Origin: an uncultured Bacilli bacterium
GTDB taxonomy: Bacteria; Bacillota_I; Bacilli_A; RF39; UBA660
Length of the DNA stretch: 64,000 bases
NCBI GenBank assembly: GCA_963931185.1
Contig: OZ006981.1
Span: 79,311 to 143,310, forward strand
Direction: 5' to 3'
The translations under genes and the position numbers were made by a program. Positions 5,863-64,000 of this stretch are shown piece by piece. Below the pieces are notes generated by a model, which searched no databases, was not told the DNA's origin, and saw only the letters and a program-made list of their open reading frames with translations. Every line of letters starts with the position of its first letter. Positions within the stretch are counted from its first letter, which is position 1.

Positions 5863-7024
5863 ATTTATTTAAAAAACTAGTTCCAATTTCTGGCTTCTCA
5901 ACATTAAAATTTTCAGAAATTGTAGCAGCAATATCGGCCATACTATTTAGAATATCCATTTTTTGAGGGTCCTTAAACTGTCTACTAAATACTATTACAG
6001 GGACATTTTCACGTGTGTGTGCATTTCCTGAAAAAGTTGGATCATTACCATGATCGGCAGTAATAATTAATAAATCATCATTTTCTAATTTATTTAGTAT
6101 CATTGGAACTTCAACATCAAATTCTTCAATTGCTTTTGCATATCCTTCAACATCCCTATTATGACCATATAAAGCATCAAAATCACTAAGATTTGCAACA
6201 CAAAGACCAGTAAATTTTTTATTCATAATATCAGTTAATTTATTTAATGTATCCATATTATTAAAAGAAGATTTTACTATTTTAGTTATTCCTTGCTCAT
6301 CAAATATATCACTTATTTTTCCTATTGAAATAACACTATAATCATTATCTTTTAAATAATCCATAACACTCTTTTTAGGAGGTTTAATAGCATAATCACA
6401 TCTATCAGCAGTAAATTTAAATTTTCCAGGTTTGCCAGTAAATGGACGGGCAATAACTCTAGCAATTCTCCATTCATCAGATAATGTTATTTTTCGTATT
6501 TTTTCACAATAACTATATAATTTAGGAATAGGTATTATATCTTCATGAGCAGCGACTTGTAAAGTTGAGTCAGAAGAAGTATATATTATAAGACTTCCAT
6601 ACGATAAATGCCTTTCACCTAATTCATTTATAATTGTATCGCCACTAACGACCTTATTTCCAATAACTCTTTTACCAGTTACCTTTTCTATCTGCTCTAA
6701 TAATTCACGAGGGAAAGCTCTTTCAGTAAAAGTTTTAAAAGGTGTTATACTTCTTATGCCTAATAATTCATAATGTGATGTTAAACTATCTTTTCCTACA
6801 TTTGTTGGTCTTGCAATAGTATAATAAGCATCTACATCATTGTTATCGTTCATATTTATAGTATTTATAAATCCTAATTTTTTTAAATTAGGAATAAAAA
6901 TATCATAATTATCCATGATATGTTTTAATGTATTTGCACCATTATCACCATAATTATTAGCATCGATTGCTTCTCCTACCCCTAATGAATCAAGTATTAA
7001 TAAAAATATTCGCTTAAATTTCAT
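5855..7024 (-). CDS. deoB: phosphopentomutase
   Basis: 389 aa. N-terminus MKFKRIFLLILDSLGVGE and the metal-binding alkaline-phosphatase-superfamily pattern are typical of DeoB/Drm. Confidence 0.9.
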   Translation of the reverse strand: MKFKRIFLLILDSLGVGEAIDANNYGDNGANTLKHIMDNYDIFIPNLKKLGFINTINMNDNNDVDAYYTIARPTNVGKDSLTSHYELLGIRSITPFKTFTERAFPRELLEQIEKVTGKRVIGNKVVSGDTIINELGERHLSYGSLIIYTSSDSTLQVAAHEDIIPIPKLYSYCEKIRKITLSDEWRIARVIARPFTGKPGKFKFTADRCDYAIKPPKKSVMDYLKDNDYSVISIGKISDIFDEQGITKIVKSSFNNMDTLNKLTDIMNKKFTGLCVANLSDFDALYGHNRDVEGYAKAIEEFDVEVPMILNKLENDDLLIITADHGNDPTFSGNAHTRENVPVIVFSRQFKDPQKMDILNSMADIAATISENFNVEKPEIGTSFLNKLK

Positions 7025-7035
7025 ATTTACATCTC

Positions 7036-7923
7036 CTATTTTTTGCTTCTCGGATGATATTCTATATAATCATTTTTTACTTTGTTATTTGAAATATGTG
7101 TATATATTCTTGTTGTTGAAATATCACTATGTCCTAAAAGTTCTTGAATACTCCTTAAATCTGCACCATATTCTAACATATGGGTTGCAAAACTATGTCT
7201 AATACTATGTGGTGAAATATCCTTGTTTATATTCTTATCTTTAAGAAGACATTTTAGTATTTTAAAAAAGCTAAAACGACTCAATCTAGTTCCAAGATTA
7301 TTTAAAAATAAATAATCATTATTTTTCTTTTTTAAAAAATATTTTCGATAGTTAAGATATTCCTGTAAAAATTTAATAACATATTCGCCAATTGGAACAA
7401 TTCTTTCTTTACTACCCTTTCCAATACATCTGATAATACAATTTTCAAAATCTACATCGAAAGTTTTTAAATTTAGTAATTCAGATATTCTAAGTCCTGT
7501 TCCATATAATAATTCTAACATAGCTTTGTTTCTATAGTCAAATGGTGTATTAAGCTTTATATCTAATAACAAAGAAACTTCTTCAACTGTTAATACATTT
7601 GGTAGTTTCTTTGCCAACTTTGGTCTCTCTACTATTAAAGCAACATCTTCTTTAACTTTTCCTATAGCATACAAATACTTATGAAAATTTTTAATAGAAG
7701 TTAATTTTCTTGCAATTGAAGTTGTTTTTATATCTTGTTTTCTTAATAATTCCAAATATTGAATTATATCTTTTTTAACTATATCATTTACAGAATTAAT
7801 ATTTTTTTGCTTTAAAAACAAAATATAATCATTTAAATCTTTTTCGTATGATATACAAGTATTTCTTGCTAATCTTCGTTCATATTCCAAATAATTTATA
7901 TATTCATTTATATCATTATTCAT
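7036..7923 (-). CDS. xerD: tyrosine site-specific recombinase XerD
   Basis: Conserved R...HSFATHMLEYGADLRSIQELLGHSDISTTRIYTH catalytic region with Tyr. Located immediately upstream of deoB, as ripX/xerD is in B. subtilis. Confidence 0.8.
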   Translation of the reverse strand: MNNDINEYINYLEYERRLARNTCISYEKDLNDYILFLKQKNINSVNDIVKKDIIQYLELLRKQDIKTTSIARKLTSIKNFHKYLYAIGKVKEDVALIVERPKLAKKLPNVLTVEEVSLLLDIKLNTPFDYRNKAMLELLYGTGLRISELLNLKTFDVDFENCIIRCIGKGSKERIVPIGEYVIKFLQEYLNYRKYFLKKKNNDYLFLNNLGTRLSRFSFFKILKCLLKDKNINKDISPHSIRHSFATHMLEYGADLRSIQELLGHSDISTTRIYTHISNNKVKNDYIEYHPRSKK

Positions 7924-8040
7924 AAATACATCCTTAACATTATATATTATATATAATATAATTTGTAAGTAAATTTGTCAAATATATATGTTGAAAGTAA
8001 AACTAATGTTTGATATAATTTTCAAAGAAAGAGTGATTTT

Positions 8041-9264
8041 ATGGAAAAACCTTTAGCTTTAAAACTTGCACCAAACTCAATAGATGAAGTAATTGGTCAA
8101 AAACATTTACTTGGTGAAAACAAAATACTAAGAAATTTAATTAAAAATAAAAAATTACCATCAATGATTTTATATGGTAGACCAGGAATTGGTAAAACAT
8201 CAATTGCAAACGCGATGGTTAAAGATTTAAATATTCGATATCGTTTTTTTAATGCTACTATAAATAATAAAAAGGATTTTGATATTGTGGTTGAAGAAGC
8301 CAAAATGTACGATGGAATTGTTCTAATAATAGATGAAATACATAGATTAAACAAAGATAAACAAGATTTATTACTACCACAAATTGAAAGTGGATTAATA
8401 ACTTTAATAGGACTAACAACCAGTAATCCATATCATAAAATAAATCCAGCAATTAGAAGTCGATGCCATTTATTTGAGTTGCTACCATTAGAAGAAGAAG
8501 ACATTATTGAAGGATTAAAAAGAGCGATAAAACACCCCGATTTAGAAGGAATAACAATAGATAATGATGCAATAAAATATATAGCAAATATTTCTGGAAA
8601 TGATTTAAGATATGCATATAATTTATTAGAAATTGCATTTTTTTCCACTAATGATAAGATAGTTAATATTAATACAATCAAGAAAATTAATAATAAGCCA
8701 GCATTTTTTCACGATAAAAATGAAGATGGACATTATGATGTTTTAAGTGCTTTTCAAAAATCCATAAGAGGAAGTGATGTAAATGCCTCTTTACACTATT
8801 TAGCAAGATTATTAGAAGCTGGAGATTTAGACAGTATATATAGAAGATTAAGTGTCATTTTCTATGAAGACATTGGATTAGCAAATCCAAGTATAGGCCC
8901 AAAATTAAATGCAGCTATTAATGCATCTGAATTAGTAGGATTGCCAGAAGCTGTAATACCAATGGGAGAAATTGTAATTGAAATGGCCCTATCCCCAAAA
9001 TCGAATTCAGCATACTTAGCAATAAATAAAGCTTTAGAAGATGTTAGAACTGGAAAATGTGATAAAGTTCCATCTCATATAAATTCTACAGCAATTGGAT
9101 ACTTATATCCGCATGACTATCCAAATGATTTTGTAGTTCAAGAATATCTACCAGAAAATTTAAGAAAAAAGAACTATTATGAACCAAAAACAACTTCACA
9201 ATACGAAAGAGCTTTGAAACAAATTAAAGAATCAATAGACAAAATAAAAAATAAATCAAACTAA
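8041..9264 (+). CDS. rarA: replication-associated recombination protein A (AAA+ ATPase RarA/MgsA)
   Basis: Walker A GRPGIGKTSIA, Walker B LIIDEIHRLNK and the C-terminal MgsA helical domain. Confidence 0.85.
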   Translation: MEKPLALKLAPNSIDEVIGQKHLLGENKILRNLIKNKKLPSMILYGRPGIGKTSIANAMVKDLNIRYRFFNATINNKKDFDIVVEEAKMYDGIVLIIDEIHRLNKDKQDLLLPQIESGLITLIGLTTSNPYHKINPAIRSRCHLFELLPLEEEDIIEGLKRAIKHPDLEGITIDNDAIKYIANISGNDLRYAYNLLEIAFFSTNDKIVNINTIKKINNKPAFFHDKNEDGHYDVLSAFQKSIRGSDVNASLHYLARLLEAGDLDSIYRRLSVIFYEDIGLANPSIGPKLNAAINASELVGLPEAVIPMGEIVIEMALSPKSNSAYLAINKALEDVRTGKCDKVPSHINSTAIGYLYPHDYPNDFVVQEYLPENLRKKNYYEPKTTSQYERALKQIKESIDKIKNKSN

Positions 9265-9283
9265 TTTATTTTTTAAACTAATA

Positions 9284-9303
9284 TTTTTTCATCATGAAAA
9301 ATT
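9284..9303. terminator. palindromic hairpin between convergent rarA and hybrid kinase
   Basis: ttttttcatcatgaaaaa perfect palindrome in an AT-rich tract. Confidence 0.3.
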
Positions 9304-9378
9304 ATTTGTTAATGAATAAATATATAATAAGCATAACATAAATATATATTTTTCATTTTTAGATAGCACATTTAATTA

Positions 9379-11235
9379 CTATTTTTTTATATTATTAAAT
9401 ATATCATCTAATTTTACTTTTATTTGCTCTTTAGTAAAAGGTTTAGAAATATAATCTATAAATCCCTCAGATTTATATTTTTCTTCAGCACCTACTATCG
9501 CATCAGCTGTTAAAGCCATAACTGGTGTATTAAAATCATCAAGCTTTAAAAGTTCTTTCAATGCTGTTTCACCTCCCATAATAGGCATCATTATATCCAT
9601 TAAAATGATATCATATTTTTTACCATTTTTAATAAGGCTTAAACATTCTTGACCATTATAACATTCATCTACAATTTTAAATTTTAATGGTTCAATATTT
9701 CTTCTAGCAACTTTGACATTTAATTTATTATCATCAACTATTAGTATTGACATATTTGTATAATCTACATTTTTACTATTAAACTTCTCATAAATTTTTG
9801 AAGTTCTTATTATTTGAGTATCAGTAATTGATCTTGAAATGCATCCTATTCTTTGTGGTAACTGAACTACAAATATTGAACCTTTTCCAAATTGTGACTC
9901 AACATTGATTTTTCCACCCATAAGTTCTACCAATTTTTTTGTAATAGCAAGACCAAGTCCTGTACCTTCAATATTAGTATTTATTTCAGTATCTAGCCTT
10001 TCAAATTTATTAAATAATTTATTTATATTTTCTGATTTAATTCCTCGACCAGTATCTTTACAGCTAATAATTAAATTACATATATTATTTTGATTTATAC
10101 ATTTAACAGTTAATTCAACTATTCCATTATCTGTGTATTTAATTGCGTTACTAAGTAAGTTATTAATAATTTCTTTAATATGAGATTTATCGCCAATTAA
10201 TTCATATGGAATATCTTCAGCAAAATTGGTTTTTAATTCTAAAGGTTTATCACCAATTCTAACTGAATTTAGTCTTGTTAGTGCTTCAACTTCTTTTTTT
10301 AAATTATATGGAACTTCTATTATTTCCATTTTGTCGGACTCTATTTTATTAATATCTATTATATTACCAACAATTTCAAGTAAAGTATGAGAAGCAGCTA
10401 CAATGTCACTTAAATCTTCTTTTATATCATCTGGACAGTTTTCATTTAATGCTATATCCTCGGACAATCCAACAATAGCATTTAAAGGCGTTCTTATCTC
10501 ATGTGACATACTAGATAAAAAATATGATTTAGCCATATTAGCTTTTTCAGCATTGTTTTTTGCTATATTTAATTCTGCAATCATTTTAATATCAGGATTT
10601 TCAATTGTATGATACATTAGCCATAAAATATAAGAATAAAAAAAACCTTCAAAAATCAATTCAGGATAGAATCTTCGTAAGTAAAAGCTCAAAAAATATA
10701 GTACTATTAGAATCAAAAATGGATATAATTTAGTAATACTATCATGCTTTATCATTAAATACAAGCTTAAAATAATAAATGTTAAAAAAGTAATTATTGA
10801 ATAAATAATAGTAATATTATATGATAAACCTTCACCATCTAAAACATTATCATAATATATAACATTTAAAGGTAAAATAATAATTAAAATAATAGAAATT
10901 GAAGTTAACAACTGAAAGAAAAAACGAATTATTTTTAATTTTTTAATATCTATATTAAAAGTAGCAAAACAATATTTAATAGAAAAATAGTCCATAATTA
11001 TTAAAATACACATATACAATTTTTGAAGGTATTTTACTATAACTAAACTATTTGTTAATTTTGCAACAGCAAAAGCAATTAAACCAACTATAATAAATAT
11101 AATATTAAGAACTAATAATTTTGAATATATATTAACTTCTTTATTAATAATATGTTTTTTCGAAAAAAATATAAAAGAAAGAGTAACAATAATCAATAAA
11201 CCGACAATTGGAAGTAATAAAGCACCCATAAACAA
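9379..11235 (-). CDS. hybrid sensor histidine kinase/response regulator (5-TM sensor, HisKA, HATPase_c, C-terminal receiver)
   Basis: H-box [22 protein letters not shown] boxes ([14 protein letters not shown]) and a receiver domain [10 protein letters not shown]...ILMDIMMP...ALTADA. Paralogue of the kinase at 51231..53075. Confidence 0.85.
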   Translation of the reverse strand: MFMGALLLPIVGLLIIVTLSFIFFSKKHIINKEVNIYSKLLVLNIIFIIVGLIAFAVAKLTNSLVIVKYLQKLYMCILIIMDYFSIKYCFATFNIDIKKLKIIRFFFQLLTSISIILIIILPLNVIYYDNVLDGEGLSYNITIIYSIITFLTFIILSLYLMIKHDSITKLYPFLILIVLYFLSFYLRRFYPELIFEGFFYSYILWLMYHTIENPDIKMIAELNIAKNNAEKANMAKSYFLSSMSHEIRTPLNAIVGLSEDIALNENCPDDIKEDLSDIVAASHTLLEIVGNIIDINKIESDKMEIIEVPYNLKKEVEALTRLNSVRIGDKPLELKTNFAEDIPYELIGDKSHIKEIINNLLSNAIKYTDNGIVELTVKCINQNNICNLIISCKDTGRGIKSENINKLFNKFERLDTEINTNIEGTGLGLAITKKLVELMGGKINVESQFGKGSIFVVQLPQRIGCISRSITDTQIIRTSKIYEKFNSKNVDYTNMSILIVDDNKLNVKVARRNIEPLKFKIVDECYNGQECLSLIKNGKKYDIILMDIMMPIMGGETALKELLKLDDFNTPVMALTADAIVGAEEKYKSEGFIDYISKPFTKEQIKVKLDDIFNNIKK

Positions 11236-51230: not shown

Positions 51231-53075
51231 ATGGGACAATGGTTTTACTTTATTCTTTGTGGATTATTGTTTTCTATAGTACTAAATATTATTTATTTTA
51301 CAAAAAAACATATAAAAACAGGTGAAACAAAAATATTTTCAATTTTACTTGTTATTAATTTAATTAGTTTAATAAGTGAATTAGCTTGTACTTATATAGG
51401 ATTTACATTTCCTGAAAATTCATTAATATCACATATTGCAACAAAAATGTTTTTATTATTTTTAATGACTTTTTTATTATATATGACATTATATATATAT
51501 GTAATTTGTTATGTAACAAGTAAAAAACAAAATATAAAATACTATAAATTATTGGAAATATTATCGTATATTTTATGGTTTATTTGTTGTGTTGGATGTG
51601 TAATCTTGCCAATAGTAACTGGTAAAGGATATGCAACAGGACCAGCTGTTAATTGGGTCTATGCCTGTTCTACTCTTACTTTAATAGAATGGTTTATCCC
51701 TTTTATTAAAAATTTTAAAGACATAAATAGAAAAAAGGTTATTCCTCTTATCTTGTTTTTACTATTTATGTCGCTAATTTCAATCATACAAAAATACAAT
51801 CCACAAATTACTTTAACAACTGTCATGGAATTCATGATAATATTCATAATGTATCATACAATTGAAAATCCCGATGTACAAATGATTTCACAATTAGAAC
51901 TAGCTAAAGAACAAGCCGAAAGAGCAAACAGAGCAAAATCAGATTTTTTAAGCAGCATGTCACACGAAATAAGAACGCCACTAAATGCAATTGTTGGTTT
52001 ATCAGAAGATATTGCTTCATATAAAAATCAAATTCCAAAAGAAGTTATCGAAGATACTGAAGATATCAGAAATGCCTCACAAACATTACTTGAAATAGTT
52101 GGTAATATTTTGGACATAAACAAAATAGAAGCAGATAAAATGGATATTAATGAAGACGTCTATAATTTTAAAAACGAAATTACTAATATGTGCAAAATTA
52201 CTCAAACACGAATTGGAGAAAAAAATATCATATTTACTTTAAATATTTCTGATGATATTCCCTATGAACTAATTGGTGATAAAGGAAAAATAAAAGAAAT
52301 TATTAATAATTTATTAACTAATGCTATAAAATATACCGAACAAGGAAAAATAAATTTAACTATTAAATGCATTAATAATTTGAATAACAATATTACAAAT
52401 CTAATTATTATTTGCCAAGATACAGGTAAAGGTATTAAGAAAGAATTAATTAATAGATTATTTACTAAATTTGATCGATTAGATGTAGAAAGAAATACTA
52501 CAGCCGAAGGAACTGGATTAGGTTTAGCTATCACTAAAGCATTGGTTGATATGATGTCAGGGAAAATAAATGTTCAGTCCCAGTTCGGTAAAGGATCAAT
52601 ATTTATGGTTCAAATACCTCAAAAAATTAATACTCTTAATAAACCTCTTAATACAAAAGAAAACATAGAAAATAAAAATATTATATTAAATAATATTACA
52701 TATGAAGGGAAAAAAATATTAATAGTTGATGACAATAAACTTAATATAAAAGTTGCGCGCAAAGCATTAAAAGATTTCAATTTTATATTAGATGAATGTT
52801 ATGATGGAAGAGAATGTTTAGAAAAAATAAACAATGGAAATACATATGATTTAATATTAATGGATATAATGATGCCAAATATGAATGGTGAATGTTGCAT
52901 AAAAGAACTAAAAAAAGATATAAATTTTAAAATACCAGTTATCGCTCTAACGGCAGATGCTATAGCAGGATCTAAAGAAAAATACATAAGTGAAGGATTT
53001 TTTGATTATATTGCTAAGCCATTTAACAAAGATCAAATAAAAGAAAAACTAGATAAAGTATTTGTTAATAAGTAA
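51231..53075 (+). CDS. hybrid sensor histidine kinase/response regulator (paralogue of 9379..11235)
   Basis: Same architecture and long identical stretches (MYHTIENPD...[20 protein letters not shown]...GTGLGLAI), plus a C-terminal receiver [10 protein letters not shown]...ILMDIMMP. Confidence 0.85.
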
Positions 53076-53129: not shown

Positions 53130-53612
53130 TTACATACATATCTTATCTAACATATTTCTAATAATTTTTTCTTCACCACTACCATTTGTTTTTAGTCTTA
53201 ATATAGGTATTCCGTATTTTTCTAATATTTGATTTTTTAATAAATCTCTATCATACTGTCTAGTACCCTTTTTATGATATTTATAACCATCAACTTCAAT
53301 AGCTAGTATTGGTTTTTTACCAAATTTATTATATATCAAAAAATCAACATGTGTAGAATGATGGTTTACATATCTTTTTTCTTCCAATGTTAATAAGTTC
53401 TTATCTTGAATTAAAGAAGATAGTCTTTGCAAAAATACAAAAGACAAATTATCATAACTTTTAATAATATCATTAATTAAATAATAAACAAGATTTTCAG
53501 TATCAAACTTCGATACTTTATTATGCTTTTTATAAAAATCAATTCTTTCTAGTTCATACTGTTTATAAATAAAATCAAAAACTGAATATATTTTACTTGT
53601 AGAAACTTCCAT
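53130..53612 (-). CDS. DUF559 (Vsr-like PD-(D/E)xK endonuclease) domain protein
   Basis: THVDFLIYNKFGKKPILAIEVDGYKYHKK...DRDLLKNQILEKYGIPILRL matches the DUF559/Vsr-like nuclease core. 52 nt downstream of the helicase gene on the same strand. Confidence 0.7.
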   Translation of the reverse strand: MEVSTSKIYSVFDFIYKQYELERIDFYKKHNKVSKFDTENLVYYLINDIIKSYDNLSFVFLQRLSSLIQDKNLLTLEEKRYVNHHSTHVDFLIYNKFGKKPILAIEVDGYKYHKKGTRQYDRDLLKNQILEKYGIPILRLKTNGSGEEKIIRNMLDKICM

Positions 53613-53664
53613 GTTATTGTACTCTACATAATTAATAAAGTCATTTATATTTCTATTTTTTATT

Positions 53665-55782
53665 TCATTTCCTGTTACTATAAAAATTAATTTTTTTTTT
53701 AGCTCTAGATATAGCTACATTTAAAATATTAGAATTAGCAACAAAATCACTTATATCATCATCGACAGTAGAAATAATAATAGTATCCTTCTCTCTTCCC
53801 TGAAATTTATGTACAGTGCTAACTTCAATATTAGATAATTCCGAACTAATTAAATTTACCTGATTATTATATGGTGCGATTACTCCTATATCGGTATATT
53901 CAGATACTAATTCTTTTAATACATCTAATTGTCTTTGATTAGCTTTATCTCTAGAATGATTCCCTTTATTAGTCCTAATTACTCTAATAACATTTTTTTC
54001 ATTATTATCATGTGTCATTATTATTAACTGATTATTATAGAATTTCTTATTACAAAAATTAATTATTTTAGGATGACATCTATAATGTTCTTGTAACAAA
54101 ACAATAGGAATATTATTAATAATTTTTTTAATGCTAGAAAGTAAACTATTTATAGAATAAGAATATCCAATATCTATTGAATATTCATAAAATATTTTAT
54201 CTGTCTTTCTTTTAACACTTTCACTAACAACATTAGGAAGCTGTTTTTCATCACCTATAATAACTGCATATTTTGCTGAAGATAAAGCTAGACTTCCAGT
54301 AACAACATCAATTTGACTAGACTCATCCATAATAATGTAATCAAATTTAAAATCATTATTAAAAGTATTTCTAGATGAGTGAGTAGTACTTAAAATTACT
54401 GGATAATCATTTATAAAATCACTATAATTTTTACTTATATCATCAATTGAATATTTTTTTTGACCATTTATATATTTAGTGAATAAATATTTTTGAAAAT
54501 ATTTCATAGATAACTTAACATATTCATCTTCTTTTTCTTTATTATTTTCAACAAATTGTTCTTTTAATGAAATAGTTTCCCTTAATTCATTTAGTTGAAA
54601 TTGATAAATTATATCTTGAATACTATAAAATATGTTAATGGTATCATTTCTATAAAACTTAAAATTCCCAACTCTATAGATAAAAATATATATTAATTTA
54701 TTCAATAATGATAATCTATCTAAAGATGAAATAGATATCCAAATTTTCTTTAAATTTTTTTTACTATATCTTTTTAATGGTAAAATTCTTATATCTTGAT
54801 TTTCTATTCGTAATTTAAAATATTTATATTCTAACAATAAATCATTTTCTTTTTGAGTTAGGAAAGCAATTTCTCTTTTACTAGCATATACTTCTTTTAC
54901 TATATTGCTAAGATTTTTTAATTCTTTTGAAATATCTAATAAATTTAGATTATCATCACATTTAAACTTAAATTCAAGATCTTTTTGATTTTCAATAAAA
55001 GAATTTTTATTATCTCTTTTTCCTAAAAGCGCTACAAAAAAATCAAGATTATATTTCTTTAGTTTTTCCTCAATATTTTCAATTGCTGCATTATTGTTTG
55101 ATACAACTTGACAATTCATATTTCGTATAAGAAGATTTGCAATTATATTTAGAATAGTCTGTGTCTTCCCTGTTCCAGGAGGTCCTTCAATAACACTAAT
55201 TTTATTATATATAGCATTTCTTACTGCTTTATATTGACTAGTATTACATCCAAAAGGAAATATTAAATCATCAAAATTACTATTCAATTCTATATCGTTA
55301 TTAAATTTAAAATAAGTAGATAATATACTATTTTGTTCGTCAATATCAATCTTTTTCATTTGTTCACTAAGTATTTTTTTACCATCATCAGTATCAAGCG
55401 AAACTATATCAGAAATTTCTTTCATATACGATAAAACAGAATATGGATTTTTTCTTATCTTCTTAATTTCTTTACTATCATACCCTTCAAAAGTATTATT
55501 AGTAAATAATATATGATAATATAAATTATTATTATCAGTAAATACAATAACTTCTTTAACATTTTTAATCTTTTTATTATTCAAAAAAATATCATATTTA
55601 CTCATGTCTACAGAATAACATTTTGTTAGAACTTTAACCCTACTTTTAGAATAAATATATTTTTTTTCATTCTGTCTATATATTATATAATAAACTTGTC
55701 TATCTGGATTATAAACACAAGTTAAAACATTATTTGTTACAATTATATTATCTATAATAATCATTTCTTTTCGAAAATCCAT
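53665..55782 (-). CDS. superfamily-1 helicase, Upf1/DNA2-like (COG1112; AAA_11 + AAA_12) with about 190-aa N-terminal domain of unknown function
   Basis: Walker A IEGPPGTGKTQTILN, motif II IIMDESSQI, motif IV/V HYRCHPKIINFCNKKFY, motif VI STVHKFQGREKDTIIIS, and a long 1B/1C-like insertion. Confidence 0.8.
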   Translation of the reverse strand: MDFRKEMIIIDNIIVTNNVLTCVYNPDRQVYYIIYRQNEKKYIYSKSRVKVLTKCYSVDMSKYDIFLNNKKIKNVKEVIVFTDNNNLYYHILFTNNTFEGYDSKEIKKIRKNPYSVLSYMKEISDIVSLDTDDGKKILSEQMKKIDIDEQNSILSTYFKFNNDIELNSNFDDLIFPFGCNTSQYKAVRNAIYNKISVIEGPPGTGKTQTILNIIANLLIRNMNCQVVSNNNAAIENIEEKLKKYNLDFFVALLGKRDNKNSFIENQKDLEFKFKCDDNLNLLDISKELKNLSNIVKEVYASKREIAFLTQKENDLLLEYKYFKLRIENQDIRILPLKRYSKKNLKKIWISISSLDRLSLLNKLIYIFIYRVGNFKFYRNDTINIFYSIQDIIYQFQLNELRETISLKEQFVENNKEKEDEYVKLSMKYFQKYLFTKYINGQKKYSIDDISKNYSDFINDYPVILSTTHSSRNTFNNDFKFDYIIMDESSQIDVVTGSLALSSAKYAVIIGDEKQLPNVVSESVKRKTDKIFYEYSIDIGYSYSINSLLSSIKKIINNIPIVLLQEHYRCHPKIINFCNKKFYNNQLIIMTHDNNEKNVIRVIRTNKGNHSRDKANQRQLDVLKELVSEYTDIGVIAPYNNQVNLISSELSNIEVSTVHKFQGREKDTIIISTVDDDISDFVANSNILNVAISRAKKKINFYSNRK

Positions 55783-55878
55783 AATTCCTCCTAGTAACTA
55801 TCAATAATAACTAAGATAATCTATGATATATAATAACATAAATACAGAAAATAATGTAGAAAATTAATAAAATTAATA

Positions 55879-56532
55879 CTATCTAACTTTTGTTACCTTA
55901 CCTACATCAAACTTATAAACAATATTAGCAAGTCCATCAATGTCTTCTTTAATATGCGATGCAATAATTATTATTTTTCCCTTTTTACACTCTAGTTTTA
56001 ATAGCTCTCTTAGCTTATTAGAAGTATCTTCTTCTATTCCATTAAATGGCTCATCAAAAATCATTACTTCTGGATCTTCCATCAATACTTGTGCAACACC
56101 TAACTTTTGTTTCATTCCCAATGAATAATTACCAAATTTCTTATCTTTTTCTTCTAGCAAATTAACTTTTTCTAGCGTTTTAATAATTTCACTCGCACCA
56201 ATTTTTCCTTCTATAGCAGCTAACATTTCTAAATTCTCATACCCTGTTAAATCTGAAATAAAACCAGGCTTTTCAATTAATGCTCTAGTATTTTTAGGAA
56301 ATGAATTATTTGCTACAATATCAATACCATCATAAATAACCTTACCATTACTAGGTTTATAAAAACCACACATAATTTTTAAAAGTATACTTTTACCGCT
56401 ACCATTTTTACCAATAAAACCATAAATGTTTCCGCTTTCTAATGTCATATTAACGTCATTTAAAACAATATTTTTCTTGAACTCTTTTGTAATATTTTTT
56501 AATTCTATTTTCATATTAACCTCCATTTTCAA
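55879..56532 (-). CDS. ABC transporter ATP-binding protein
   Basis: Walker A GKNGSGKS, signature-like YSLGMKQKLGVAQ and Walker B IFDEP. Confidence 0.8.
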   Translation of the reverse strand: MKMEVNMKIELKNITKEFKKNIVLNDVNMTLESGNIYGFIGKNGSGKSILLKIMCGFYKPSNGKVIYDGIDIVANNSFPKNTRALIEKPGFISDLTGYENLEMLAAIEGKIGASEIIKTLEKVNLLEEKDKKFGNYSLGMKQKLGVAQVLMEDPEVMIFDEPFNGIEEDTSNKLRELLKLECKKGKIIIIASHIKEDIDGLANIVYKFDVGKVTKVR

Positions 56533-57964
56533 TATTTTCTATAATATCACTATAATATTTTTTAAATATATAACTTATAAACAATAATATTAAAATAAAC
56601 AAAATAATTAAAATTGTCACTGAGAAATTAATAAATGATAAAGTATAACAATAAAATTCACCAATTATTAATGGTACTAATAATAGTTTAATAGAAGAAT
56701 TAGTATAAAACAATAACATACAAAGTAAGTTTACAAACGCTATAACTAATGTAAATGAAAAATCTCCAAAAAATAAATTTAAAATGTCAGAAAATAACAA
56801 AGAAGAAGAAAACATAAATAAAACATAAACTAAAAAATAACTAATAACTTTAATTAAAAATAACATTACGCAAAATAAGACAATTTTAAGTATTAAATAC
56901 TTATTTAAAGAAATTCTTAAAAGTAAAGTAATCTTGCTATTTTTAATGTCTTCAATAAAATTACTGGATATTACATAGAAAAAGAAGAAATTATAAAATA
57001 AAATAAGCAATAATTGAATAATAGAACTAGTATTACTATAATTAAGACCAAATATATTTTTAAAATTATCAATATTAACAATATCGCTAAAAAAGGCAAA
57101 AAAAACATAAAATGATATAAGCATTAAAAAATAGAGAAAAAATAAGCTTTTCTTTTTCTTAATAATCATAATAAGAGTATAAAATACATTTGAAAAAAGT
57201 AAAAACATTTTATTAAAACAAAATTTAATATTGTACATAAATTTCAATATTAAAAGCATTAAAAATATATACGATAAACTAATCATAATTTCTATAAAAA
57301 AGCTATTATAATATAGTGGCAGTAAAAAGTAAGCAATGGATACACCAATATCACTTAAATTAGTAACAATAAAATTACTTGGTACATATAATCCAAAAAA
57401 GAACAGATAAACAAAATATAGAAGAAAAAATAAAACGGATAATTTAACAGATAAATTTTTAAAACACCAAATTTGAATTAAAGAAATTATTAAAATCCAA
57501 ATCAAATTTCTTAATACATAAACTACAACATATAAAATATCATAGGTTCCCCTATTTTCCAAAAAATAAATACCATATCTCAACTTAACAAATATATTTA
57601 ATGAAATTATAACAATTATTACTATCCAAATATATAAAATTATATTTTGAAAAATAACGATGCGAGCGATATTTTTTAAAAAGTTTTTTTCATTTTTCAT
57701 TCTAATTTTAATAAAATCATTATTTAAAAAATAAAATAATATTAAAGTATTAAATAAAAATATAATTAATAACGAAAAAATAGAAAGAGAATTACCAAAA
57801 ATAGTACTTATTATTTCAAAATAACTTAAATGTTCGTTATTTATTCCCATAACTGCACCTAGGAATATAAATGTAATAAAAGATAATAAAATAAGAAGTA
57901 AAAATGAACTTATTTTACTATAATAATTAAAAAAATTAAATTCTTTTTTTAGTTCACTAATCAT
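56516..57964 (-). CDS. polytopic membrane protein (bacteriocin-associated integral membrane/permease-like)
   Basis: 482 aa with more than 10 TM segments; translationally coupled to the neighbouring genes. Confidence 0.5.
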   Translation of the reverse strand: MISELKKEFNFFNYYSKISSFLLLILLSFITFIFLGAVMGINNEHLSYFEIISTIFGNSLSIFSLLIIFLFNTLILFYFLNNDFIKIRMKNEKNFLKNIARIVIFQNIILYIWIVIIVIISLNIFVKLRYGIYFLENRGTYDILYVVVYVLRNLIWILIISLIQIWCFKNLSVKLSVLFFLLYFVYLFFFGLYVPSNFIVTNLSDIGVSIAYFLLPLYYNSFFIEIMISLSYIFLMLLILKFMYNIKFCFNKMFLLFSNVFYTLIMIIKKKKSLFFLYFLMLISFYVFFAFFSDIVNIDNFKNIFGLNYSNTSSIIQLLLILFYNFFFFYVISSNFIEDIKNSKITLLLRISLNKYLILKIVLFCVMLFLIKVISYFLVYVLFMFSSSLLFSDILNLFFGDFSFTLVIAFVNLLCMLLFYTNSSIKLLLVPLIIGEFYCYTLSFINFSVTILIILFILILLFISYIFKKYYSDIIENIENGG

Positions 57965-58877
57965 TTATCATCACAAACCTCTCTTTTTTATAATATAGAA
58001 TAGCTACAAATAAAGTAGATATTAATACATAAAATATTGAAGAGACAATCATCCATTCAAAATTAGAAATTTCCGATCCAAAAACCCAAATTTCTGGATC
58101 AGAAAGAGCAATTGCTAATTCAGATAACTTAAATACTCTTGATAAAATCATCGATAAAAAATTAATAATTGTAATTTGTGTTATAAGATAAAATAAATAA
58201 GTAGCAACACTATTTACTATAAAATTTTTTGTTTTATAAAACATTAGATAAGCCGTATTAATATAATAAATACTATGACATAATACAGAAAAAATCATTA
58301 ATGACAAATATGGTAACCACAAACTTCTAGCATATTCTTTTTGTGTCCAAAAAAAGCCTTCATATTCTATTTCACCAGGTAAATATTGAAATTTAAAGTT
58401 TGACACAATACAAGTAATAAAAAAACAGATAATAATAAATAATGGTAAAATCAAAATAGATTTCATTGATGATAAATAATGTTTTCGAAAAAAAGAAAAA
58501 TAATTTTCTCTAGTGAATTTAAACTTATAAATACCACTTTTAACATCAACGTAAAAATAATAAATACCAGGAATAAAGACAAATAATATTGACAGCAATT
58601 GTAAATATTGAATAGGTCCAAGATTAGGATCCCCCGATGCAATAATATAAATAAACAATAATGGTGCTGGAGGTACTTTATAACTATTTAATTCTTGCTC
58701 TAGTTCTTGGCAATTTTCTATTCCATTATTTAATACGCACTCATTATATGAATCACTAATAAACTTTTTATTATTATTAAAGTTTTTCATAAAATTTGCA
58801 AGTCCAATTAAAAAAATTACAATTAAAATAAGAAGCGATATAATAATTAAAAAATTATTTTTAATAAATTTATTCAT
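57957..58877 (-). CDS. polytopic membrane protein
   Basis: 306 aa with multiple TM helices; overlaps the downstream gene by 8 nt. Confidence 0.5.
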   Translation of the reverse strand: MNKFIKNNFLIIISLLILIVIFLIGLANFMKNFNNNKKFISDSYNECVLNNGIENCQELEQELNSYKVPPAPLLFIYIIASGDPNLGPIQYLQLLSILFVFIPGIYYFYVDVKSGIYKFKFTRENYFSFFRKHYLSSMKSILILPLFIIICFFITCIVSNFKFQYLPGEIEYEGFFWTQKEYARSLWLPYLSLMIFSVLCHSIYYINTAYLMFYKTKNFIVNSVATYLFYLITQITIINFLSMILSRVFKLSELAIALSDPEIWVFGSEISNFEWMIVSSIFYVLISTLFVAILYYKKERFVMIND

Positions 58878-58919
58878 AAAAATCTCCCATTATAAGTAGA
58901 AAAAGTAGAATATATTTTA

Positions 58920-59321
58920 CTAATCAATATACCAAGTTCCAGAATAGTAAACAGAACTTACTAATGGATTGGCAATTTTCAAAGACATAATAAAATTTGC
59001 ATATGTCTTAACATAGTTCTCATTAAAATATACAGTTTCTCCACCACTCAATTCCTTAAATGATGTTGTTAAAGATGTATCAGCGTTAGTAATACGCACT
59101 TTCAAATTTCTATCCAACCATATAACCTTATCTTTACAACTACGCAAGTAAAAAGACTGGGGAGTTGAATTATATTTTTGATGTCTATCAGTTTGATAAA
59201 TTGTGCTAGACCCTGATATAGTATTTCCAGCAAAATACCAATTATTTTCAGCAGCAACCTTTATAGTTGTAATGATTATTGTTGCTAAAAACATAACAAA
59301 AGTAATTTTAAATAATCTCAT
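58920..59321 (-). CDS. small secreted protein, possible lactococcin-972-family bacteriocin
   Basis: Sec signal peptide (cleavage near VAA-EN). About 108-aa mature beta-rich domain with GTW motifs near both ends. Gene context is membrane protein(s) plus ABC ATPase. Confidence 0.35.
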   Translation of the reverse strand: MRLFKITFVMFLATIIITTIKVAAENNWYFAGNTISGSSTIYQTDRHQKYNSTPQSFYLRSCKDKVIWLDRNLKVRITNADTSLTTSFKELSGGETVYFNENYVKTYANFIMSLKIANPLVSSVYYSGTWYID

Positions 59322-59412
59322 ATTTCCTCCTTACAACAAAGTATAAATTCTACTTTTTCCAATTAAAATATAACACTATCCAGCTATATAACATATCTAT
59401 AGTAACTAGAAA

Positions 59413-60102
59413 TTATCTATTTGTAATAGAATCAGAATAATTAAACTGTGAGATAGCTAAATTAATGTCCTGATGATGAAGAACTTTATCTGAAGTAACA
59501 TAATAAACTTCTAAAAACAAATTATTACAAAAGTCATGATCAATATCTGATGAATCATATTCAAAAATTACACTTTCATTTTTAATAAAAATATTATCTG
59601 TTACTTCTTTTTCAAATATTATAGTATCATTAATTTTAAAAAAATACTTGATTTTAACTATATTTGACAAATCATCACCAAGATACTGTAAATTGCTCAA
59701 TATTAAAAATTTATTTTTAGCATTAATATGTATAATCCCTTCTACAGAAAACAATGATGATTCAGACCGAACAATATATATATGAAAATCATAATATCTA
59801 TTTAAACAATTTACGAAAAAAAGGTAAATGACAAAAAATATAATTAAGCTTAAAAATAAGTTAATAACAAGTTTTTTTATTGTATTTTTTTCCTTTTTTT
59901 TGGCACTAAAAAATTCATCGTTGGTAATATTAAATAATTTACAAAAATTATTTATAACAAAAATATCAGGAAGGCTTAATCCATTTTCCCATCTAGAGAC
60001 AGCTTTTCCAGTAACGCAAAGTTTTTCTCCTAATTCTTCTTGCGTTAATCCAGCTTTTTTACGTAAACTAAAAATAAATTTACCTATCTTTTCTTGATTC
60101 AT
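59413..60102 (-). CDS. XRE-family HTH transcriptional regulator with TM segment and C-terminal domain
   Basis: LTQEELGEKLCVTGKAVSRWENG HTH, then a TM helix (LVINLFLSLIIFFVIYLFFV) and an extracytoplasmic domain. Confidence 0.65.
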   Translation of the reverse strand: MNQEKIGKFIFSLRKKAGLTQEELGEKLCVTGKAVSRWENGLSLPDIFVINNFCKLFNITNDEFFSAKKKEKNTIKKLVINLFLSLIIFFVIYLFFVNCLNRYYDFHIYIVRSESSLFSVEGIIHINAKNKFLILSNLQYLGDDLSNIVKIKYFFKINDTIIFEKEVTDNIFIKNESVIFEYDSSDIDHDFCNNLFLEVYYVTSDKVLHHQDINLAISQFNYSDSITNR

Positions 60103-60358: not shown

Positions 60359-61630
60359 TTATTTTTTAGTTCCTTTTTTTATTATAAAAGATACTCCTTT
60401 TCTACTGTTTTCAATAGAAATATCATAGTTTAATAGGTTAAGTGTTTTTTTTACTATCGATAATCCTAAGCCAAATTGTCCATTTATTCCTTTTTTAAAT
60501 GGATTAAAAATATCATTTACTAATTTTTCATCAATGTTAGGACCATCATTAAATAATGTGAGTTTATTATTTTTGACAGTTATTTTAATTTCTTTTTTTG
60601 CATATCTAATAAAATTATTTAGAATATTATCAATAATAGTTTCCCATAAATCAAAAGTTCCACTAAATTTACTATTATCAATTGAAGCATGAATCTTTAC
60701 ATCCTTCCTTTGATATTTAAATTTTTCAATTGAAGCATTAATTACTTCACTAATATCAATTACACTAATTGTTTCATTTTTTTTATCTTTCAAATAATCA
60801 AGTTTATTTAAATACAGAAGTGAGTATACTTTTTTTTCTAGTTTATCGGTTTGTTCCTTAATAACATTTAATGCAGTATCTTTATCTTCGACTCCATCTT
60901 CAACTGCTTCTACATAAGACTTAATAACCGTGAGAGGGGTTTTAAAATCATGAGAAATATTTTGATACATATTATTCTTATATTCTTCCTGTTTTTTCAA
61001 AGATAGTCGCATGTCTTCAATAGATTTAGCTAAAGATTTAATTTCATCATCCGTCTTAAAATTAATTTTATGATCAAAATTATCATTTTCAATATTATCA
61101 ATTTTTAATTTTAACTTTTCGATTTTTCTAACTACTACATTACTCCAAACAAATACTATCAATGCAATTAATAAAAAAGCAATAAGAAATAGAGATATAA
61201 CTGTTACCATAAGGTTTCCATGTATTTTACTTAGATAGTTTTCATTAGCAATAGCAACTTTTGTCGCATTCTCATCTTTAGAAAGATAGTAATAATAAGT
61301 TTTATCATTAAATTCAAAACTTCCATATTCTTTATTCAGCATATTCAAAAGTTCATTTTTATCTACATTAACTATTCTTGTATAATTATTACTAGTATAA
61401 ATTTTTCCATCTAACATATATAAATAAGCAATTTCATTACTAACATTACTTCCCTCTAAATCACTATTTATAATATCAAGTGGATTCTTTAAAGCATTAT
61501 AAATACTAGATTCATATACAGGAGTAAGTGATTTTGGCAAAATAATTCCAACAGTAACTAAAACAATATCAAATATGATTATTAGAATTAATATTAATTG
61601 TCTTCCAAGTTTATTTTCTATATATTTCAT
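60359..61630 (-). CDS. sensor histidine kinase (two TM, extracellular domain, HisKA + HATPase_c)
   Basis: H-box ISHDFKTPLTVIKSYVEA and G-box FGLGLSIVK. Confidence 0.8.
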   Translation of the reverse strand: MKYIENKLGRQLILILIIIFDIVLVTVGIILPKSLTPVYESSIYNALKNPLDIINSDLEGSNVSNEIAYLYMLDGKIYTSNNYTRIVNVDKNELLNMLNKEYGSFEFNDKTYYYYLSKDENATKVAIANENYLSKIHGNLMVTVISLFLIAFLLIALIVFVWSNVVVRKIEKLKLKIDNIENDNFDHKINFKTDDEIKSLAKSIEDMRLSLKKQEEYKNNMYQNISHDFKTPLTVIKSYVEAVEDGVEDKDTALNVIKEQTDKLEKKVYSLLYLNKLDYLKDKKNETISVIDISEVINASIEKFKYQRKDVKIHASIDNSKFSGTFDLWETIIDNILNNFIRYAKKEIKITVKNNKLTLFNDGPNIDEKLVNDIFNPFKKGINGQFGLGLSIVKKTLNLLNYDISIENSRKGVSFIIKKGTKK

Positions 61631-62289: not shown

Positions 62290-62493
62290 ACAATCACCTA
62301 TTTCTTATTATATCATAAATTATCCACATCACCCCATTTCTTTTTTAGTTCTATATAAATACTAAGAATGAATATATTGTTATATTAATTTGATATTTAG
62401 CTCTTATTCGATAATCATCATCTCCTTTTTACATATTCAGTATATAACACAATTGTAGTGAAAATATTTAAATATTGTGGTAAATTATGGGAA

Positions 62494-63522
62494 TTATTGA
62501 ATTTCAAAATTAAAGTTTGAAGTCATCTTTTTTACTAAATTATAACTATCAGCATGACTACAATGGGCTTTCCAAGAATTAAAGCTTAATTGTACTTTTT
62601 TAAAATCTAATTTTTTACTATTAAATAATTTATTCCATTTATTAATCTTTCTTTTTATATCTTTTTTACATCTTTTCCTAACTAAAATATGAGTTTCATA
62701 AATTTTATAACCACAAAAATCAACACCTAATTTATTAGGAAAATAATTAGACTTTTTATTAAGCGTCAAATTTAACTTTTCATCAAGAAATTTTATAATT
62801 ATATTATACATAAGCAAAGATTCTTTTTTGTCTTTTAAAAGCAATACAAAATCATCCATATATCTTATATAATATTTAACTTTTATCTTTTCTTTAAGAT
62901 AATGATCTAACTCATTCAAATAAATATTAGCAAAAAACTGACTAGTATAATTTCCAATTGGTATTCCTATACTACTATCATTATCACTTACTAATAACGT
63001 TTTTGTAAAATTTAAAAGGTATGAATCCTTTATGTATTTTTCCAATATTTTTAAAAGTAAATTATTATCAATACTATAAAAAAATTTTTTAATATCACAT
63101 TTTAAAATATAATAATTTCCATATTTTCTTTTCATAATACGCATATACTTTTGTAATTTTAATACTGCTTTGTGATTTCCTCTGTTTTCAATACATGCAT
63201 ATGAATCTATTATAAACCGTGGAATAATATAAGGTTTTATAAATTCTTCAATATACCATTGATGAACAATCCTATCTTTATATGGTAAAGACTTTATTAT
63301 TCTTTCTTTTGGATATTTAACTATAAATTCTCTATATTTCCCCAATTTGTATTTTCCTTGTTTAATTTCACACATTAAATTAATAATATTACTTTCTAAA
63401 TCTAATTCAAACAAAAGGACTTCTTTTTTATTAGCCTTAGCCTTTTTAGCTCTTTTATGTGCATCTAAAAAATATATATAAGAAAGTTTGTCAAAAAACA
63501 CATTTTTTATTGTCTTGGGCAT
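62494..63522 (-). CDS. reverse transcriptase, diversity-generating retroelement (DGR) type
   Basis: RT motifs 1-7 are present. Motif 4 is IGIPIGNYTSQFFAN, i.e. the DGR-specific [ILV]GxxxSQ instead of QGxxxSP. Motif 5 is YIRYMDDFVLL. 342 aa with no maturase or endonuclease domain. Confidence 0.7.
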   Translation of the reverse strand: MPKTIKNVFFDKLSYIYFLDAHKRAKKAKANKKEVLLFELDLESNIINLMCEIKQGKYKLGKYREFIVKYPKERIIKSLPYKDRIVHQWYIEEFIKPYIIPRFIIDSYACIENRGNHKAVLKLQKYMRIMKRKYGNYYILKCDIKKFFYSIDNNLLLKILEKYIKDSYLLNFTKTLLVSDNDSSIGIPIGNYTSQFFANIYLNELDHYLKEKIKVKYYIRYMDDFVLLLKDKKESLLMYNIIIKFLDEKLNLTLNKKSNYFPNKLGVDFCGYKIYETHILVRKRCKKDIKRKINKWNKLFNSKKLDFKKVQLSFNSWKAHCSHADSYNLVKKMTSNFNFEIQ

Positions 63523-63863
63523 TTACTAATCCAACCACCTAGTAAATTTCCAATATTACATATCTTTTTACTCCATGCATAATAATTTTTAATCGAAATA
63601 TATTTTTTCTTATAAGATACACGAATTAATACTTTTTGCATTTTTAAAATGATATCTAATCTATTCAAATTAATTAATTTTGTCTTATAATCATATTCTT
63701 TAAACGCCGATAAAATACATTTCATTCCATCATAAGTATTATTTTTAATCTGCGTAACTAATGATAGCTTAACACTTTTAGGGTATTTTTCAGTAATAGA
63801 TTCTACATAGTATATTAACTCCAAATACTGTTTATATATAATTAAATCTTCAACTTCTTTCAT
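63507..63863 (-). CDS. avd: DGR accessory variability determinant (Avd; four-helix-bundle protein)
   Basis: 118 aa. YKQYLELIYYVESITEKYPK and C-terminal IGNLLGGWISK parallel the bAvd patterns Y.QMLIVERYERV...P and VGRILGSWIAR. Overlaps the RT start by 16 nt; AAGGAG RBS. Confidence 0.65.
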   Translation of the reverse strand: MKEVEDLIIYKQYLELIYYVESITEKYPKSVKLSLVTQIKNNTYDGMKCILSAFKEYDYKTKLINLNRLDIILKMQKVLIRVSYKKKYISIKNYYAWSKKICNIGNLLGGWISKCPRQ

Positions 63864-64000
63864 TTATTTTCTCCTTTAATTCAAATAAAAAATTCATAGC
63901 TTGGATTGGGGTTAAATCGTTTAAATTAATATTTTTAATCATAGTAATAATATCATAATCTTTATAATTACAATTAATATCTTCATAATTTTCAATAATT
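63850..64000 (-). CDS. 3' end of a gene truncated by the window edge; C-terminus resembles MutS (…DLTPIQAMNFLFELKEKI)
   Basis: Open frame of 50 codons to the window end. It ends overlapping the avd start. The LTP.QA.n.l.eLK pattern is typical of the MutS1 C-terminal end. Confidence 0.3.
   Translation of the reverse strand, partial: IIENYEDINCNYKDYDIITMIKNINLNDLTPIQAMNFLFELKEKINERS

Follow-up and report, generated by a model that had tools for sequence, protein, structure and literature searches.

The last 1.5 kb of a 64,000-nt stretch of DNA from an uncultured Bacilli bacterium (GenBank contig OZ006981.1, positions 79,311 to 143,310; hereinafter, the window, that is, the entire stretch analyzed) carry, on the minus strand, two complete genes and the end of a third one. 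The encoded proteins are a reverse transcriptase (RT), the accessory protein Avd and a protein with similarity to MutS, Msl. A preliminary description of the same DNA had considered the RT and Avd to be the core of a diversity-generating retroelement (DGR) for which neither a template repeat (TR) nor a variable repeat (VR) could be recognized. Here we analyze these genes, the sequence beyond the edge of the window on an identical contig, and the related loci in other genomes.

The RT contains the sequence IGNYTSQ (residues 189-195), with the DGR signature [I/L]GxxxSQ in the position where group II RTs have QGxxxSP, and the catalytic YMDD motif (residues 221-224). The top-ranking relative of known structure is chain A of PDB entry 8ub7 (328 aa; 'Reverse transcriptase'), which we take to be bRT, the DGR enzyme of Bordetella phage BPP-1; the alignment covers residues 7-337 (E=1.1e-47), and group II and retron-type RTs rank behind it, at ~1e-17. 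The RT is also similar to PHROG 1423 (E=1e-102). In NCBIfam, the matches are to a group II RT, Drt3a, the retron St85 RT and Drt2, all far below the respective curated cut-offs. Judging from the signature motif and the best PDB match, the RT belongs to the DGR clade. Avd is recognized by the Pfam family bAvd (64.5 bits; cut-off 40) and by PHROG 3206, 'Avd protein of DGR' (E=6e-22). The 3' end of avd overlaps the start of the RT gene by 16 nt, and the open reading frame (ORF) that enters from the window edge, with the last residues ...LTPIQAMNFLFELKEKINERS, overlaps the start of avd by 14 nt. All three ORFs are intact, and each overlaps the next one. Thus, the identification of a DGR core in the preliminary description holds, as does the coupling of avd to the RT gene with no TR between them.

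The complete element and its adenine-specific variation

Twenty-one public contigs encode a protein identical to this RT. One of these, a 1.016-Mb metagenome contig from the European Nucleotide Archive (ENA), denoted L001, of which 21 kb were read here, is the reverse complement of the window, with 100% identity over all 11,507 shared bases. A window base x corresponds to L001 position 10001+(63522-x), and the window ends at L001 position 9523; window-equivalent coordinates past 64000 are extrapolated. In the order of the window minus strand, the element consists of the target gene with the VR, a hairpin, a terminator-like site, a promoter-like sequence, the TR, a structured RNA, a terminator-like hairpin, msl, avd and the RT gene (Table 1); within the window, only the end of msl, avd and the RT gene are found. 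The element is chromosomal and has housekeeping rather than phage genes as neighbors: on L001, rsmH, PBP, def and recD2 are located on one side, and a two-component system on the other side.

Table 1. Features of the element on contig L001 and in the window
Feature	L001 position	Window or window-equivalent position	Strand in window	Description
Target gene	6771-8735	64788-66752		654 aa
VR	8591-8733	64790-64932		143 nt; last codons of target gene
Hairpin	8734-8757			AGTTTTTCC(G)/(T)GGAAAAACT; downstream of VR only
Terminator-like site	8836-8867			with T run; after target gene
Promoter-like sequence	8861-8889			TTGGCA-17-TATTAT; before TR
Gap between target gene and msl				555 nt
TR	8944-9086	64437-64579		143 nt; in gap
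Structured RNA	9093-9242	~64281-64430		~135 nt; abuts TR 3' end
Terminator-like hairpin	9246-9271			between TR-adjacent RNA and msl ribosome-binding site
msl, whole gene	9290-9673	63850-64233 (64001-64233 beyond window)		127 aa; Pfam MutS_I
msl, 3' third		63850-64000	-	49 codons and stop, plus one base of preceding codon
avd	9660-10016	63507-63863	-	ORF, 118 aa, pI 9.6; Pfam bAvd; accessory gene
RT gene	10001-11029	62494-63522	-	ORF, 342 aa; Pfam RVT_1, E=1.5e-15; DGR reverse transcriptase

A scan of L001 for repeats with adenine-restricted mismatches yields a single clear pair, the TR and the VR. The TR begins 437 nt past window base 64000, and the 3' end of the VR falls 2 nt short of the last base of the target stop codon. 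The two repeats are identical in 107 of the 110 non-adenine positions (background, 24 +/- 4.8), and the mismatches affect 16 of the 33 adenine sites compared with 3 of the 110 other sites (Fisher p=1e-9). Read in the frame of the target gene, the TR contains twelve AAC codons; AAC-rich TRs are the usual DGR design.

Inside the window, two scans of the entire 64 kb for direct repeats that differ only at A or only at T detected no relevant pair, and the L001 TR, when slid over both strands, reached at most 44 of 110 non-adenine matches against a background of 24.5 +/- 4.8, with no VR. The pairs 47414/48657 and 54519/6166 were rejected as chance similarities between AT-rich, low-complexity segments, one of them with 19 mismatches in 50 nt and neither near the RT gene. 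The 204-bp tail downstream of the RT gene (62290-62493) contains no terminator-like site, and the RNA covariance model R1 has no match anywhere in the window. The preliminary description was correct, then, in that neither the tail nor the rest of the window harbors a TR/VR pair. This absence is real for the window but is an effect of truncation: the window ends inside the element, and the TR, the VR and the target gene lie just past its edge. An unusual placement of the TR, one of the options that had been considered, is what L001 displays, the TR being located upstream of msl-avd-RT, which departs from the gene order of BPP-1.

Seven loci from different samples, with RT identity of 94-100%, were compared for traces of activity. 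The TRs of these loci show at most two substitutions, both T-to-C, at unit position 133 (L003, L006 and L007) and at position 6 (L007). The VRs come in five versions; between any two of these, 14-24 of the 33 TR-adenine sites differ, versus 0-4 of the 110 other sites. In the comparison of L001 with L002, 17 of the 33 VR adenine sites differ, whereas no more than 10 differences occur in the 1200 nt of gene sequence that immediately precede the VR. The T-to-C changes of the TR recur at the same place in the VR of the same locus; this mirroring in the cognate VRs, which would not be predicted from ordinary mutation, implies recent transfer from TR to VR. A scan of JGI metagenomes with the TR pattern, in which A was replaced by N, gave no match; the organism is represented in ENA assemblies only. 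The preliminary description had proposed to extend the sequence past position 64000 and to look for variation at the adenine sites of a VR; the extension reveals msl, the TR, the VR and the target gene, and the variation is indeed seen between samples. Given these adenine-specific differences and the variability of the VRs, the suggestion, made in the same description, that Avd and the RT might be put to some non-canonical use is not supported. We conclude, with a probability of about 0.93, that the element is a complete, chromosomal, active DGR of the Msl type, of which the window holds the 3' two-thirds, and that its host is an uncultured gut Bacilli bacterium with a GC content of 24.7%.

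The Msl protein and the target protein

Msl is a 127-aa protein with an isoelectric point (pI) of 6.72 that matches the Pfam family MutS_I (PF01624; 35.4 bits, cut-off 20.6). Residues 4-89 align to MutS domain I, and a profile of the 48-sequence family matches MutS in the PDB with E=2e-7. In contrast to the multidomain MutS proteins of ~800-860 aa, Msl consists of domain I only, without the connector, core, clamp and ATPase domains, while keeping the MutS GxFY segment with the mismatch-stacking Phe; all 48 Msl sequences have G25 and F27. A canonical MutS is ruled out by the length of the gene (384 nt), by the presence of domain I only, and by the retention of the Phe but never of the Glu of the MutS Phe-X-Glu motif. 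Hence the upstream gene is not an ordinary mutS, a possibility for which the preliminary description had allowed; nor is it a C-type-lectin target, as this description had correctly noted. The similarity to MutS had been proposed on the strength of the C-terminal residues. The similarity itself stands, by virtue of the N-terminal domain I, which is located outside the window, whereas the C-terminal cue is not significant alone: the motif D-x-x-x-L-T-P-x-x-A-x-x-x-L-x-x-L-K in the in-window part of Msl is collinear with the C-terminal 33 residues of E. coli MutS (826-858), with a weak score (5.1 bits, i-Evalue 200), and a profile of the Msl C-terminus alone gave no match against the PDB at E<=10. 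That Msl is a composite of MutS domain I and the C-terminal dimerization helix of MutS could not be maintained as a supported claim, because the C-terminal profile alone has no PDB match. In the family alignments, Msl proteins also display a 'KCGFP' motif, in which K55, C56, F58 and P59 are invariant and G57 is nearly so.

These features agree with those of a protein family that has been described as comprising small proteins (112-283 aa, pI 7.2 +/- 1.7) with MutS homology, which are always encoded together with avd, never with HRDC, and define Architecture D of the DGRs (Wu, Zimmerly et al., Nucleic Acids Res 2018, PMC5758913). No HRDC domain was found among the called genes of the L001 cassette locus. 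By these sequence criteria, the upstream gene encodes the Msl accessory protein of an already described DGR family. The likeness to the Architecture D elements extends from the small, near-neutral MutS domain I protein encoded with avd and RT to the AAC-codon TR and the VR at the 3' end of an adjacent gene for a target of the C-type-lectin type. Msl is also present in the Bacteroides DGRs Bfr, Bth and Bun (bioRxiv 10.1101/2024.11.15.621889). The targets of these Bacteroides elements are tip proteins of type V pili, whereas the target described here has a type IV prepilin N-terminus; the host lineage, uncultured AT-rich gut Bacilli, also distinguishes the present element from the described Msl DGRs.

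The target protein has an N-terminal class III signal (prepilin) motif, KG/FTLIELLAVIIILGIL, where the slash marks the cleavage site, with the cleavage and methylation motif G/FTLIE. The N-terminus scores 26.3 bits against Pfam N_methyl (cut-off 21.2) and 25.4 bits against TIGR02532 (cut-off 16.3), and residues 20-87 match type IV pilins in the PDB (E=9e-6). These matches place the target among the type IV pilin-like proteins, in which the motif precedes a hydrophobic alpha-1 helix. Of 23 full-length related targets, 13 share the GFTLIE sequence; the others have, as read by eye, a short run of basic residues ahead of a hydrophobic segment. Among the called genes of L001, no pilus genes were detected near the element. 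At the other end of the protein, a profile of the C-terminal 330 aa built from 16 relatives matches the PDB entry 5vf4 (E=1.3e-5), presumably the DGR variable protein of Thermus aquaticus with the C-type-lectin fold, and, weakly, PvdO (FGE-like). The VR encodes the ending ...PWFxRGGxxxxGxxAGxFxF...FRLVL. The targets are most likely surface proteins and, most plausibly, variable adhesins. A DGR-variable lectin domain anchored via a pilin segment is not mentioned in the DGR surveys that we searched.

RNA structures, related loci and genomic neighborhood

The hairpin that starts one base after the stop codon of the VR has a stem of 9-10 bp and a loop of 4-6 nt, and none is present after the TR. 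The site is kept in most of the relatives, with different sequences. Together with the IMH-like 3' homology of TR and VR that it follows, it matches the known target-recognition hairpin of DGRs, and the same function is predicted here. Between the TR-adjacent RNA and msl, the terminator-like hairpin consists of the stem AAGCAGTAC/GTACTGCTT and a T run. The conservation of the stem sequence in many relatives suggests a role beyond that of an ordinary terminator: the hairpin might define the 3' terminus of the DGR RNA or attenuate the expression of msl-avd-RT. Transcription of the TR unit may yield a separate RNA of ~370 nt and may in part continue into msl-avd-RT.

The structured RNA that abuts the TR resembles the Rfam family RT-14 (RF02921): L001 9108-9240 aligns over the full length of the model (1-144) with 39.5 bits (E=0.003), compared to a gathering score of 48.1. 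The equivalent RNAs of L051 (46.9 bits) and L037 (44.0 bits), likewise aligned over the full length and located directly 3' of the TR, also stay under 48.1, and the copy in L042 favors RT-9. At the level of gathering scores, a scan of 15 related loci against Rfam gave no match to an RT family, and the relationship is visible at the E-value level only. This RNA is thus best regarded, from its sequence and scores, as a relative of RT-14 and not as a member. In an alignment of 20 sequences, it forms three hairpins, with 93% of the cells paired compared to 40-48% in slid controls, a covariation score of 0.72 versus 0.11-0.18 in the slid controls, and double changes in 19 of 23 pairs. In an outer helix, the boundary of the TR/VR homology pairs with the strand that follows hairpin 1, with compensatory changes such as CTATGATA/TATCATAG, CTACGATATG/TGTATCGTAG and CTACATTAAG/TTTAATGTAG. 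The outer helix and the layout of three hairpins are shared with RT-14, for which the source paper reports no link to DGRs (Weinberg et al. 2017, PMC5737381). With a covariance model derived from the alignment, the RNA is detected in the majority of the related loci that were searched, and beside the TR wherever the TR was mapped; in some Clostridia-type loci, the RNA is located downstream of the RT gene, on the opposite strand. By analogy with the spacer RNA of BPP-1, the RNA probably binds the RT-Avd complex and provides the priming site.

A comparison with the DGR of BPP-1 (mtd-avd-TR-brt) reveals a common set of parts, namely an RT homologous over its full length, Avd, adenine-specific differences between TR and VR, a C-terminal VR in a C-type-lectin-like receptor-binding protein, a hairpin after the VR and a structured RNA 3' of the TR. 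The order differs, however, being VR-TR-RNA-msl-avd-RT in the present element and VR-avd-TR-RNA-RT in BPP-1; the msl gene is extra, the element is chromosomal whereas that of BPP-1 is phage-borne, and the RNA resembles RT-14 whereas that of BPP-1 was assigned to RT-10 (PMC5737381).

To collect relatives, one genome per GTDB species was scanned; from 460 stretches confirmed with tblastn, the best 80 were kept, with RT identity of 49-94%. Nearly all of the kept loci come from metagenome-assembled genomes of uncultured gut Bacilli, 'Tenericutes' and Clostridia, from human, rabbit, mouse and chicken samples; the relatives include Acholeplasma sp. CAG:878 and Clostridium sp. CAG:793 (L062 and L045). 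The msl gene was detected in 71 of 86 loci. In 33 loci, the VR is at the end of an ORF upstream of the RT gene and the TR is upstream of the RT gene as well; in most of these, the TR follows the VR at a distance of 135-330 nt and ends ~900-1000 nt before the RT start.

Some of the relatives have more than one copy of the element or its parts. Tandem arrays of 6-10 units, each of ~313-342 nt and 74-78% alike, are present in L021 (3062-6373), L016 (2603-5743) and L011 (3332-5146), and tandem TR arrays occur also in L056, L013 and L010. Each unit consists of a TR-like, AAC-rich segment, which encodes ...PWFxRGG...GTGxGVFxFNNNNGNANGN.SFRVV, and a separate copy of the RT-14-like RNA after it. Because non-adenine positions vary from unit to unit, the units have the look of alternative templates or of templates that serve several targets, although they may also be an artefact of assembly. 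A literature search gave no description of DGR arrays with multiple TRs. In L080, the whole VR-TR-RNA module is duplicated 3.8 kb apart (801-1432 and 4589-5220), and both TRs match both VRs. Contig JAQVKM010000001.1 carries two DGR copies ~130 kb apart (L061 and L064) with identical gene and TR/VR coordinates and identical RNA-model scores.

Within the window, positions 53130-60102 comprise a 7-kb strain-specific island that is present in L001, absent from L002-L006, and flanked by a sensor-kinase gene (60359-61630) and a hybrid kinase gene (51231-53075). The island encodes an HTH protein with an RmrA-like N-terminus, three proteins without a family match, an ABC-type ATPase, a 160-aa DUF2726 protein and a 705-aa helicase that matches MkoC and MkoA of the Mokosh system (E=1e-48 and 7e-43, respectively) and PDC-S37. 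It is probably a defense island.

Alternative readings and implications

Several observations weigh against the interpretation of the element as a complete, active Msl-type DGR. The TR, the VR, the target gene and most of msl lie outside the window and are taken from the identical contig of another assembly. The activity of the element follows from sequence comparison, with diversification evident between samples or populations rather than within one population. With 68.7 bits (E=4.5e-19), the match of Avd to the NCBIfam family DivGenRetAVD falls short of the curated cut-off, 80 bits. None of the 68 aligned Msl sequences has the Glu of the Phe-X-Glu motif of MutS ('GDFYE' segment), this position being mostly occupied by Ile, as in L001, and also by Leu, Val, Cys or Thr, and a PADLOC search matched Msl to no defense or repair family. 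Finally, the C-type-lectin-like nature of the target C-terminus is predicted from the profile match and the motif pattern. Nothing was found that contradicts the DGR assignment.

The alternatives differ with respect to the part of the element that they call into question. The RT could be a defense RT of the DRT/Abi type, a retron RT or a remnant of a group II intron next to a gene for a four-helix-bundle protein. The sub-threshold matches to group II RT, Drt3a, retron St85 RT and Drt2 would fit such an origin, and so would the strain-specific island with the Mokosh-like helicase ~2.4 kb away. However, these matches are all far under the cut-offs, the BPP-1 DGR RT outranks all other solved relatives by 30 orders of magnitude, and an Rfam scan of L001 8400-11300 gave no match to a retron msr/msd or an intron RNA. 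Moreover, the [I/L]GxxxSQ signature, Avd, the adenine-specific TR/VR pair and the turnover of the VRs are all present; the TR/VR evidence refutes this explanation, which has next to no probability left.

Hardly more credible is an orphan msl-avd-RT core with a distant target or none at all, as the preliminary description envisaged in proposing a remote target. The lack of a TR/VR pair anywhere in the 64-kb window agrees with such a core, and remote targets are documented for 45 of 372 DGRs (PMC5758913). Yet, a remote target need not be invoked, and the 'no adjacent target' part of this explanation is refuted, given that the adjacent TR, VR and target gene lie 437 to ~2750 nt past the window end on the identical contig, with the same adjacency in 33 related loci. 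Additional remote targets beyond the adjacent one are compatible with the data, the part of L001 that was read being 21 kb of 1.0 Mb. A decayed DGR, with all parts present, retrohoming lost and only old differences between the VRs, is improbable as well, if slightly less so. It would be in line with the restriction of the known VR variation to comparisons between samples, with the 3 non-adenine mismatches between the L001 VR and its TR, and with the terminator-like hairpin between the RNA and msl, which could limit the expression of the RT. Decay is hard to reconcile, however, with the three intact, overlapping ORFs, with the contrast between the L001 and L002 VRs and the gene upstream of them, and with the copying of non-adenine TR substitutions into the cognate VRs.

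For the active, Msl-type DGR that we favor, the observed parts and their order, the adenine-specific TR/VR pattern, the transfer of non-adenine changes from TR to VR and the diversity of the VRs between samples can be set within the established DGR pathway, taken over by homology; what we infer is the division into transcription units, the involvement of the RNA in priming and the function of Msl. The TR and the adjoining RNA would be transcribed, and the RT-Avd complex would bind this RNA and make cDNA from the TR, misincorporating nucleotides opposite the template adenines. The cDNA would then take the place of the VR in the neighboring gene, with the 3' homology of the two repeats and the hairpin downstream of the VR as guides. 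The predicted outcome is a type IV pilin-like surface protein that carries a C-type-lectin-like domain with a rewritten ligand-binding face.

With regard to Msl, our best guess is that it binds the mismatches of the cDNA:VR heteroduplex and blunts the mismatch repair of the host. In Bacteroides, the host MutS lowers retrohoming 5- to 10-fold, in an all-or-nothing manner (bioRxiv 10.1101/2024.11.15.621889), and a 2026 preprint cites the Msl genes as a reason to suppress mismatch repair when DGRs are ported. It is tempting to speculate, although we are inclined to doubt it, that Msl, with its domain I and stacking Phe but without the Glu and the ATPase domain, shields the heteroduplex from the host MutS, so that the Msl-type DGRs escape the all-or-nothing reversal by repair.

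The element is an ordinary member of a known DGR class and leaves the understanding of DGRs unchanged. It adds a well-resolved example of the little-studied Msl-type DGRs, the family of which is widespread in uncultured AT-rich gut Bacilli, with a natural series of VR variants that demonstrates activity. More generally, when a DGR core occupies the final 1.5 kb of a window, the conclusion that it lacks a TR is unwarranted. It has been speculated that RT motifs other than RT-10, the only one tied to a DGR (that of BPP-1), function in DGRs (Weinberg et al. 2017, PMC5737381). Located exactly at the 3' boundary of the TR, the covarying RT-14-like RNA supports the speculation that further 'RT' motifs are DGR RNAs and marks the place to seek the priming of cDNA synthesis in Msl-type DGRs. 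The combination of a prepilin anchor with a DGR-variable lectin domain points to variable adhesion as the selected function. If the shielding of the heteroduplex by Msl is true, a gut bacterium with a small genome could keep rewriting the tip of a pilin-like adhesin.

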